DNA of 47,880 nucleotides. It comes from a virus. Lineage: Duplodnaviria > Heunggongvirae > Uroviricota > Caudoviricetes. The position numbers are program-made. The DNA lies in the IMG/VR virus record IMGVR_UViG_2880412407_000003, positions 1-47,880 of that record, one strand, 5' to 3'. Positions 18,001 through 21,000 of the stretch are shown piece after piece. Within the stretch, counting starts at the first letter, position 1. Each line of letters opens with the position of its first letter.

Positions 18001-21000
18001 ACAGGCTTAATGATCCATGCTTAATACTGTAAAAATATCCAGTTATGAGTTAATCAACGCCGACTGCCTGGAATTTATGCGGTCGTTACCCGAAAATTCT
18101 GTTGACCTGATAGTCACGGACCCGCCGTACTTCAAAGTGAAACCCGCGGACTGGGATAACCAGTGGGTGGGTGATGAAGATTACCTGAAGTGGCTGGACC
18201 AGTGCCTTGCGCAGTTCTGGCGGGTGCTGAAACCAGCCGGAAGTCTTTACCTGTTCTGTGGCCATCGCCTGGCATCTGACACCGAAATCATGATGCGTGA
18301 GCGGTTTAACGTACTGAACCATATCATCTGGGCAAAGCCGTCCGGACGCTGGAACGGGTGTAACAAGGAAAGCCTGCGGGCGTATTTTCCGGCCACAGAG
18401 CGCATTCTGTTCGCGGAACATTATCAGGGGCCGTATCGCCCGAAAGATGATGGCTGTGAGGCGAAGGGCAGGGCACTGAAACAGCATGTGATGGCCCCGC
18501 TGATTGCTTACTTTCGTGATGCGCGCGCTGCCCTGGGGATAACGGCAAAACAGATTGCAGATGTCACAGGAAAGAAAAACATGGTGTCGCACTGGTTCAG
18601 TGCCAGTCAGTGGCAGCTGCCGAACGAAAGCGATTATCTGAAATTACAGGCCCTGTTTGCCCGGGTGGCAGAAGAGAAGCATCAGCGCGGTGAACTGGAA
18701 TGGCCACACCACCAGCTGGTCAGTACATACAGTGAACTGAGCCGACAATATGTCAGCCTGCAGGAAGAGTATAAAACCCTGCGGCGTTATTTTTCCGTAT
18801 CGGCTGCGGTTCCTTATACGGATGTGTGGACGCACAAACCCGTACAGTACTATCCCGGGAAACATCCGTGCGAAAAACCGGCAGAAATGCTGCGGCAGAT
18901 AATCAGTGCGAGCAGTCGTCCGGGTGACCTGATTGCAGATTTTTTCATGGGGTCAGGTTCAACGGTAAAAGCGGCGCTGTCACTGGGACGTCGGGCGATT
19001 GGTGTTGAGCTGGAGACCGGACGTTTTGAGCAGACAGTCAGGGAAGTTCAGGATTTTATCAGTCAGAACGGATGATATTGCAGAATCAGTGACGCACCGT
19101 TATTATTCTGCGCCCGGCCCTTTAGCTCAGTGGTGAGAGCGAGCGACTCATAATCGCCAGGTCGCTGGTTCAAATCCAGCAAGGGCCACCATCACATACC
19201 GCCATTAGCTCATCGGGATAGAGCGCCAGCCTTCGAAGCTGGTTGCGCGGGGTTCGAGTCCTCGATGGCGGTCCATTATCCGTACCCTGCGTTGTTAGCT
19301 CAGCCGGACAGAGCAATTGCCTTCTAAGCAATCGGTCACTGGTTCGAATCCAGTACAACGCACCACACTTATTTTCCAGGCTCGCTTCGGCGGGCCTTTT
19401 TTGTATCTGCGCCCCGCCCGGCGCATATCAACCACAGAGCCTTTCGGGGGGGAGCTTACGGAGTGGTCAGTGTGACTTTCTCTGTGGGCAGATCGCTCCC
19501 GGGCGTTGGCTCACCCACCCAAAGGAACGTCACGATGTTTGGTATTTTTGGTAAAAAAGCCCGCCGAGCGGCAGTGGAAATTAAAAAGTTTGAGAAACGT
19601 GATCTGGCACAGGCGGTTATTAATGCTGCCTACCTGGTGGCCTGTGCAGATGGTGAATGTGAGGCTTCCTAGAAAGCGAAGATCGAACAGGTACTGCGTA
19701 ATCAGCCTGCGCTGTCCGCGTTTACGTCAGAAATTAATGCGATTAGCGCAACCATTATCGGTCAGCTGGATACGAACTTTAAAATTGGTCGTCGTGCGGC
19801 GTTACGTGAGATCGAGGATGTGAAACACGATACGCGTGAAGCGGAAGATGTGCTGGATGTGGCGGTGGCCATTGCGGAGGCAGACGGCGAAATTGAGCCG
19901 GAAGAGCGCAAGGTGCTGGAAGAGATTGCCGGTGTTCTGGGTCTTCGTCTGGAGAATCACCTGTGACGGTAAAACTGCGCCTGGCTGTGGCTGCACTCCT
20001 GCTGTTTCTGGTGGTGATGGTGGATTTCACCAGCAGAATCATGTCGGTGCTGGCGGATGGGGTGCTGGTCTGCGGCATTGTGGTATTGCTGTAGCCGGTG
20101 ATAAAAAGAAACAGCCTGCATAATGCTTGATTTTTTTATTTGCTGTTTATTAAAAATACTACTGCATGGTGAATCCCCCTGTGCGGAGGGGCAATCAGCA
20201 ACCAGGTATATGTGATAATCGCGGATTCAGGTGCTGATACTGAATTCACCGGGAGGCACCCGGCACCATGCAAGAAAAAGAATGTGCATGCAAACATGCC
20301 CCTCTCCGGAGGGGCTTTTTTATGGGTAAAAAATGCCCGAATGGGTTCGGGCAATAGCATGAGATACTGATATTGTTGTGTTGTTATCGTGTGGATTTTA
20401 ACCAGGGTTTATCAGGCTGCGCAACTGCGTGGCCTTTTTTCATTTCTTGGGCTGTAGTCCCCGTGTGTCATTCAGGCTTCCGGACTACAGCCCACTCCAT
20501 ATCTGATTTAATACACTATCCCGGCCGGGAGGAATAATGACATTTAAACATTATGATGTTGTCAGGGCGGCGTCGCCGTCAGACCTTGCGGAAAAGCTGA
20601 CACACAAACTGAAAGAGGGCTGGCAGCCATACGGCGGACCGGTTGCCATTACGCCGTACACACTGATGCAGGCGGTGGCTATTGAAGGAGAGCCACAGGT
20701 CGGCCCTTCATCTGAGCCGGATTGGTACTACGTCATCGTACTGGCCGGGCAATCCAATGCCATGGCTTACGGTGAAGGGCTTCCGCTGCCGGATTCATAC
20801 GATGCTCCGGATCCGCGCATTAAACAGCTGGCGCGCCGCAGTACAGTGACGCCGGGCGGGGCTGCCTGCAGATATAACGATATTATTCCGGCTGACCACT
20901 GTCTGCATGATGTGCAGGATATGAGTACGCTGAATCATCCGAGGGCTGACCTGAGCAAAGGGCAGTACGGCTGTGTCGGCCAGGGGTTACATATTGCCAA

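Follow-up and report, generated by a model that had tools for sequence, protein, structure and literature searches.

We analyzed a window of 47,880 nucleotides, the whole of IMG/VR virus record IMGVR_UViG_2880412407_000003 (Caudoviricetes), which is a defective lambdoid prophage of the Escherichia coli O121:H19 lineage, and characterized within it tciA, a TerB-domain gene whose 143-codon frame is interrupted by a single amber codon. The locus is very probably a nonsense-inactivated tciA allele that is now established and that recombination has carried from one lambdoid prophage to another. This null allele genuinely exists and is frequent among pathogenic E. coli, but it amounts to an ordinary pseudogene. 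The original prediction described a 143-codon frame with paired ADGE motifs, open from end to end except for one TAG, and this description is accurate by both translation and the open reading frame (ORF) list. The frame reads ATG, 45 sense codons, TAG, 97 sense codons and TGA; the ORF list breaks it into 19463-19672 and a fragment starting at GTG. The features of the locus are:

19535-19966, + strand: tciA pseudogene, TerB-domain, 143 codons (frame, Pfam, PHROG, P1 TciA match and annotation by the Prokaryotic Genome Annotation Pipeline, PGAP)
19553-19558, + strand: run of six A (A6) near the tciA 5′ end, seven (A7) in most E. coli prophage copies
19646-19672, + strand: first ADGExxxxE motif, codons 38-46; ADGE is codons 38-41 (19646-19657) and the last Glu is the amber codon
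19670-19672, + strand: in-frame TAG, codon 46, by comparison a former GAG (Glu)
19820-19966, + strand: 48-aa ORF fragment with a GTG start, 3′ of the stop
19880-19906, + strand: second ADGExxxxE motif, codons 116-124, 3′ of the stop; ADGE is codons 116-119 (19880-19891)
19964-19966, + strand: terminal TGA of the tciA frame
19963-20094, + strand: tciB (DUF3927; Pfam E = 6.8e-12; PHROG 1470 'TciB-like', 1-43/54)

Comparison with orthologues identifies the residue that the stop replaced. At the amber column, the nearest intact copy (O145:H28 strain 16003, identical at 98% of nucleotides) reads GAG, codon 46 is Glu (GAG or GAA) in 38 of 38 aligned intact homologues with identities of 50-97%, and Klebsiella TerB (PDB 2JXU) likewise has a Glu at the aligned position. 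Because Glu46 is present in all intact homologues, the lesion reads as a G-to-T nonsense change, GAG to TAG, in a once-intact tciA. Orthologues that end at this codon, with unrelated sequence beyond it, were not found; the orthologues read on, and their downstream sequence continues the same. The amber codon is not conserved in diverged orthologues, and TAG is limited to a group of E. coli alleles of low diversity (synonymous polymorphism, pS, 0.047).

With the stop replaced, the translated frame matches the Pfam TerB family (PF05099) at 46.3 bits (cut-off 24.4, E = 6e-12), and as residues 26-138 are aligned, the match covers both sides of the stop. This match across the stop, together with full-length homologues that are 50-98% identical, indicates a genuine gene rather than a frame left open by chance. 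The second ADGExxxxE motif is intact in sequence; in intact homologues, G118 and E124 are invariant and A116 and D117 are conserved in at least 90%. The intact protein is a stand-alone TerB-domain protein of 141-148 aa found in E. coli, Klebsiella, Salmonella, Serratia, Pantoea, Enterobacter and many phages. An intact orthologue that is 98% identical (P0001) matches PHROG 632 ('tellurite resistance', moron category) over its full length (1-143/143, E = 4e-69). By tblastn of phage records, P1 TciA is colinear with the frame over the full 143 aa (40.6% identity, E = 7e-21), and full-length copies of tciA are present in 131 records, including P1, P7, D6 and Erwinia jumbo, Vibrio and Pseudomonas phages. 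Klebsiella TerB (2JXU) is matched by phmmer at E = 4.3e-8 over residues 15-137.

An AlphaFold (AF2) model of the orthologue P0001, rather than of the window product, is all-helical with eight helices (predicted local distance difference test 88.4, predicted template modelling score 0.83) and places a long helix at residues 4-36, the ADGE-bearing loop at 37-43 and helix 2 at 44-55. In a Foldseek search of the PDB with this model, the best match was 2h5n (PG1108; probability 1.00, template modelling score 0.55-0.59, E = 0.017), a weak match to a structure that we take to be of the TerB-like class, and 2JXU was not recovered. As Foldseek gave this weak match, the link to the TerB family rests on sequence. 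By descent the window locus belongs to the TerB/TciA family, but as a pseudogene rather than a working gene. The names that link tciA to tellurite or colicin resistance, or to a cell-division phenotype, are annotation-derived, and PADLOC returned no meaningful defence-system match on the locus.

Two known systems are among the closest points of comparison. The window resembles the P1 TciA/TciB/TciC system in its full-length colinearity, in the small TciB-like (DUF3927) gene that follows, and in being an accessory, non-essential gene; P1 tciA is non-essential for lytic growth in a CRISPR interference screen (PMC10695390). It differs in that the window copy is part of a lambdoid late region, has its frame broken at codon 46, and is followed by a shortened tciB, with no tciC that we could see. 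TerB of the Klebsiella terZABCDE operon belongs to the same domain family, and the acidic motifs and the Glu found at the amber position in intact tciA are conserved in it, whereas tciA is a stand-alone phage gene of low identity without other ter genes.

We also noted a 48-residue PHROG profile, phrog_3920 ('unknown function'), that matches residues 96-143 of intact TciA. As these are the same residues that the GTG-initiated ORF covers, the profile appears to have been built from amber-interrupted tciA fragments.

The amber allele is widespread. A TAG-specific 49-mer with 24-nt flanks, which seeds only across the T, matched 1004 places in 576 of the 5426 complete E. coli genomes searched, with 1-5 copies per genome. 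The hosts include O157:H7, O55:H7, O26, O111, O103, O145, O121 and some strains that are not Shiga toxin-producing E. coli (STEC). An earlier probe with a 28-nt flank, in which both alleles could seed, gave exact matches in 536 records for TAG and 57 for GAG. An exact-flank scan of IMG/VR contigs over-represented TAG (85 versus 13), and a codon-degenerate pattern was more balanced; the combined sample contained, among the matches listed, 83 TAG, 83 GAG and 6 GAA copies of tciA, and the IMG/VR ratios describe samples rather than a census. The TAG allele was found in at least three different 5′ contexts and several flanking haplotypes. Related tciA copies of any allele occur at about 4000 places in 847 of the 5426 genomes (median of 6 places per genome), and 751 bases at the window locus are 100% identical to six complete O121:H19-lineage genomes, three of them labelled O121 or O121:H19 and three without a serotype in the record. 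Our search of the literature on tciA and tciB, and on TerB with an amber codon, found nothing about this allele.

This distribution bears on two origins that the original prediction had proposed for the stop. The first, that the gene is intact and was misread in sequencing or assembly, gains something from the TAG differing by a single base from the intact allele, but the same TAG is present in the six O121:H19-lineage genomes, which were sequenced independently, in 576 complete genomes and in at least 83 IMG/VR contigs, and we assign an error negligible probability. The second was recent pseudogenisation. Nonsense inactivation stands, given the invariant Glu in orthologues; recency does not, given 576 genomes and at least three 5′ contexts. 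A recent event private to this strain or prophage would fit the rarity of the window's combination of ATG, A6 and TAG, which occurs in 2 of 76 TAG copies with complete flanks in IMG/VR among the matches listed. TAG, however, is shared by all of the serotypes named above and by non-STEC strains, on several flanking haplotypes, and the chance that the event was private is very slight.

Further lesions have accumulated on the amber background. We scored decay in the 76 IMG/VR TAG copies with complete flanks, again among the matches listed. In 31 of these, the A6 run at 19553-19558 is A7, which puts the tciA ATG out of frame, and in another 39 the first 17 tciA codons are replaced by unrelated DNA; one or the other lesion is thus found in 70 of the 76 copies, and the two copies with the ancestral ATG are of the form seen in the window. 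Sense alleles mostly retain the ancestral start. The A6/A7 tract is slippage-prone and varies between copies, and in A7 copies PGAP places the start at a TTG 4 nt downstream ('MVFLVKK...'). In the 5′-replaced copies (about 39; for example IMG/VR locus L012, near position 2530), the recombination breakpoint falls at the 'KFEKRD' codons and the new DNA directly follows a Q-like zinc-finger antiterminator gene.

Polymorphism 3′ of codon 46 shows the same tendency. Sense haplotypes combine high diversity with strong constraint (pS 0.49; ratio of non-synonymous to synonymous polymorphism, pN/pS, 0.047), and TAG haplotypes are young and less constrained (pS 0.047, pN/pS 0.21). Most variation within the TAG copies is also found in sense alleles, as synonymous blocks that resemble tracts of recombination. 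The variants confined to TAG alleles comprise 4 non-synonymous and 2 synonymous changes, compared to 7 and 27, respectively, for those that sense alleles also have (Fisher p = 0.039, on small counts). These patterns suggest that selection was relaxed once the tciA stop arose.

Three observations weigh against a plain pseudogene. The frame 3′ of the TAG is open in 75 of the 76 TAG copies (among the matches listed), pN/pS in TAG haplotypes is still below 1, and the amber allele is very common. Together these could hint at residual tciA function; they are equally expected from the low diversity of the allele (pS 0.047) and from recombination with intact alleles.

A maintained and functional amber allele could take the form of low-level read-through of the UAG-A context by near-cognate tRNA, with a small dose of complete TciA as the result, or of separate products, a 45-aa N-terminal helix and/or a C-terminal fragment such as the 48-aa product of the GTG ORF. 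Its abundance (1004 places in 576 genomes, up to five copies in each), the downstream frame that is open in nearly all copies, the pN/pS below 1 and a Shine-Dalgarno-like GAGG before the GTG at 19820 are all in keeping with function, as is the argument of Belinky et al. 2021 that many bacterial in-frame stops are not pseudogenes (PMC7918605). Against this, the motif loses an invariant residue to the stop, most amber copies lack the normal start or the first 17 codons as well, amber-private variants are mostly non-synonymous, and isolated phages retain an intact tciA. The tciA stop is like those of Belinky et al. (PMC7918605) in being a single stop in an open and widely shared frame, and unlike them in that it is absent from diverged orthologues, constraint is apparently relaxed and extra lesions accrue. 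The GTG at 19820 is the only in-frame restart candidate with a Shine-Dalgarno-like sequence, and its GAGG is poorly spaced, just 2 nt away; the RNA structure in the 100 nt around and after the stop (-26.1 kcal/mol, z = -0.96 versus shuffles) is not unusual. Internal restart and read-through signals were rejected on these grounds, as nothing convincing was found. We hold a functional amber allele to be very unlikely. We likewise think it very unlikely that selection keeps it, in hundreds of genomes of pathogenic E. coli, as a widespread 'leaky nonsense' allele of prophages, in which the stop tunes or splits tciA; were it so, near-cognate read-through during prophage induction could release a trickle of full-length TciA, or independent products could be made from either side of the stop.

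The original prediction also raised translation that depends on an amber suppressor and proposed a check of host alleles, which we carried out. A phage- or host-encoded amber (or ochre) suppressor tRNA could be suspected from the three tRNA genes that lie 170 bp upstream of tciA and from the fact that both premature stops of tciA-tciB are TAG. The phage tRNA anticodons in the window, however, are CAT, TCG and TCT, none of them a suppressor, and ARAGORN found no CTA, TTA or TCA anticodon in any tRNA from 173 related prophage loci (1.5 Mb). For the host, we designed 49-nt probes for eleven single-step suppressor alleles from K-12 tRNA genes, covering Gln, Tyr, Ser, Leu and Trp amber and Gln, Tyr, Lys and Glu ochre alleles (supE, supB, supF, supC, supD, supP, supU, Lys and Glu types). 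The longest wild-type match of these probes is at most 26 nt, so wild-type genes cannot seed. The panel matched 162 genomes, and the 60 listed are all laboratory-type (C600, DH5alpha, DH1, J53, S17-1, OV2 and the like); as laboratory supE and supF strains were detected, the panel works. We combined the probes with a single-copy hya marker taken from NZ_CP027454.1 (the window ends short of hya). One place per genome was returned for the combined query, so none of the eleven classical suppressor alleles is present in the eight O121-lineage genomes (0/8). With no suppressor in the window, in the 173 prophage loci or, for the eleven classical alleles, in these hosts, we consider suppressor-dependent translation extremely improbable.

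The same query returned two places, not one, in E. coli D1 (NZ_CP010134.1, from a dog), which carries an amber tciA copy. The extra match may come from a suppressor tRNA allele of natural origin or from a second region that resembles hya.

The small membrane-protein gene next door, tciB, is also altered. In the window, TGG (Trp44) of tciB is TAG at 20092-20094, giving 43 aa compared to 55 in most copies. Among the matches listed, the tciB amber occurs in 17 of about 150 IMG/VR copies, and 16 of these 17 are on a tciA-TAG background. The tciB GTG start overlaps the tciA stop (GTGA), and because of this overlap we infer that translational coupling between tciA and tciB is probably lost in the amber allele.

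We propose the following account of the nonsense-inactivated, recombining allele. tciA is a small, all-helical TerB-domain accessory ('moron') gene of lambdoid, P1-like and many other phages, in which a single G-to-T change is likely to have turned the invariant Glu46 codon, at the end of the first ADGExxxxE motif, into TAG. Translation would then stop after 45 residues, which by the P0001 model correspond to about one helix plus a loop and no TerB domain; tciB would lose its coupling through GTGA and here carries a premature amber of its own as well. The mutation may have arisen once or a few times in the E. coli prophage pool, and recombination between lambdoid prophages would then have spread the allele, which would also have hitch-hiked with a late-region module that includes tRNAs, small RNAs (sRNAs) and an esterase. 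On this account it spread because tciA is dispensable, as supported by the non-essentiality of P1 tciA (PMC10695390), and not because the stop is used.

The organization of the prophage is consistent with late expression of the locus. The early part of the window encodes an integrase and excisionase, early genes and RusA, followed by the Q antiterminator; the esterase gene is followed by holin and lysis genes. The neighboring features, together with those in which the window differs from its closest relative, are:

16622-17443, + strand: Q-type antitermination gene, heading the late region that holds tciA
between Q and the N6 DNA methylase gene: small ORF
18017-19075: N6 DNA methylase
19116-19365, + strand: three phage tRNA genes, CAT (Ile2 according to PGAP), Arg-TCG and Arg-TCT
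19378-19397, + strand: terminator-like hairpin 3′ of the last tRNA
20138-20327, + strand: STnc100 sRNA (Rfam, 148 bits)
20328-20389, - strand: AgvB sRNA (anti-GcvB; Rfam, 96.5 bits)
20537-22387: DUF1737/SASA esterase
23901-24017 and 25342-25458: ALIL pseudoknots
24484-25793 and 28104-29367: insertion sequence (IS) differences from NZ_CP027454.1

A scan of the + strand 5′ of tciA for sigma-70-like promoters found none. This result and the hairpin after the last tRNA would fit expression of tciA from the Q-antiterminated late transcript. The first phage tRNA (19116-19191) is called Met (CAT) by ARAGORN and Ile by PGAP, the usual ambiguity of a lysidine-modified Ile2 tRNA, and the trio resembles the ileZ-argN-argO set of Stx phages. 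The STnc100 and AgvB sRNAs are encoded back to back in the interval that separates tciB from the esterase gene. TerB is listed in a 2026 preprint as a conserved neighbor of the related PasA and PasC prophage sRNAs.

Isolated phages JLK-2012 and Evi carry an intact tciA-tciB at the same place, 3′ of Q and 5′ of the lysis region, with 97-99% protein identity. In JLK-2012, but not in Evi, three tRNA genes precede tciA, and in JLK-2012 a yjhS-type esterase gene also follows tciB. Unlike the window, both phages encode Glu at codon 46 and have tciB at full length.

The window is colinear with the prophage of E. coli 2014C-4423 (NZ_CP027454.1) up to 24484, beyond which the IS copies differ: the window carries one more IS3-family copy in its lysis region, and IS600 is located elsewhere and in the opposite orientation. 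The window thus derives from a different O121-lineage assembly. The prophage is degraded, with IS elements in the lysis region, and in the near-identical prophage of NZ_CP027454.1 PGAP annotates the portal gene as truncated and a tail gene as frameshifted. Rfam matches in the early region include the sok antitoxin RNA (14005-14179, beside a Hok/Gef gene) and DicF RNA (4959-5010), both typical of Rac/Qin-like prophages.

The pseudogene status of this locus is already known, as RefSeq flags the identical locus in NZ_CP027454.1 (C6W74_RS14325) as a pseudo 'tellurite resistance TerB family protein' with an 'internal stop'. This record and its equivalents have the same sequence as the window, and their annotation is silent on how widespread the allele is. 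The mechanistic import is small, as the gene is a known phage accessory gene and its nonsense inactivation is of a routine kind. The broken tciA fragments appear to have seeded a spurious phage family, phrog_3920, which is relevant to annotators. For the biology of E. coli, one null allele of a moron gene is carried by about 10% of complete genomes, often in multiple copies, and the amber tciA is a marker of the free recombination of late-region modules among the lambdoid prophages of STEC and enteropathogenic E. coli.

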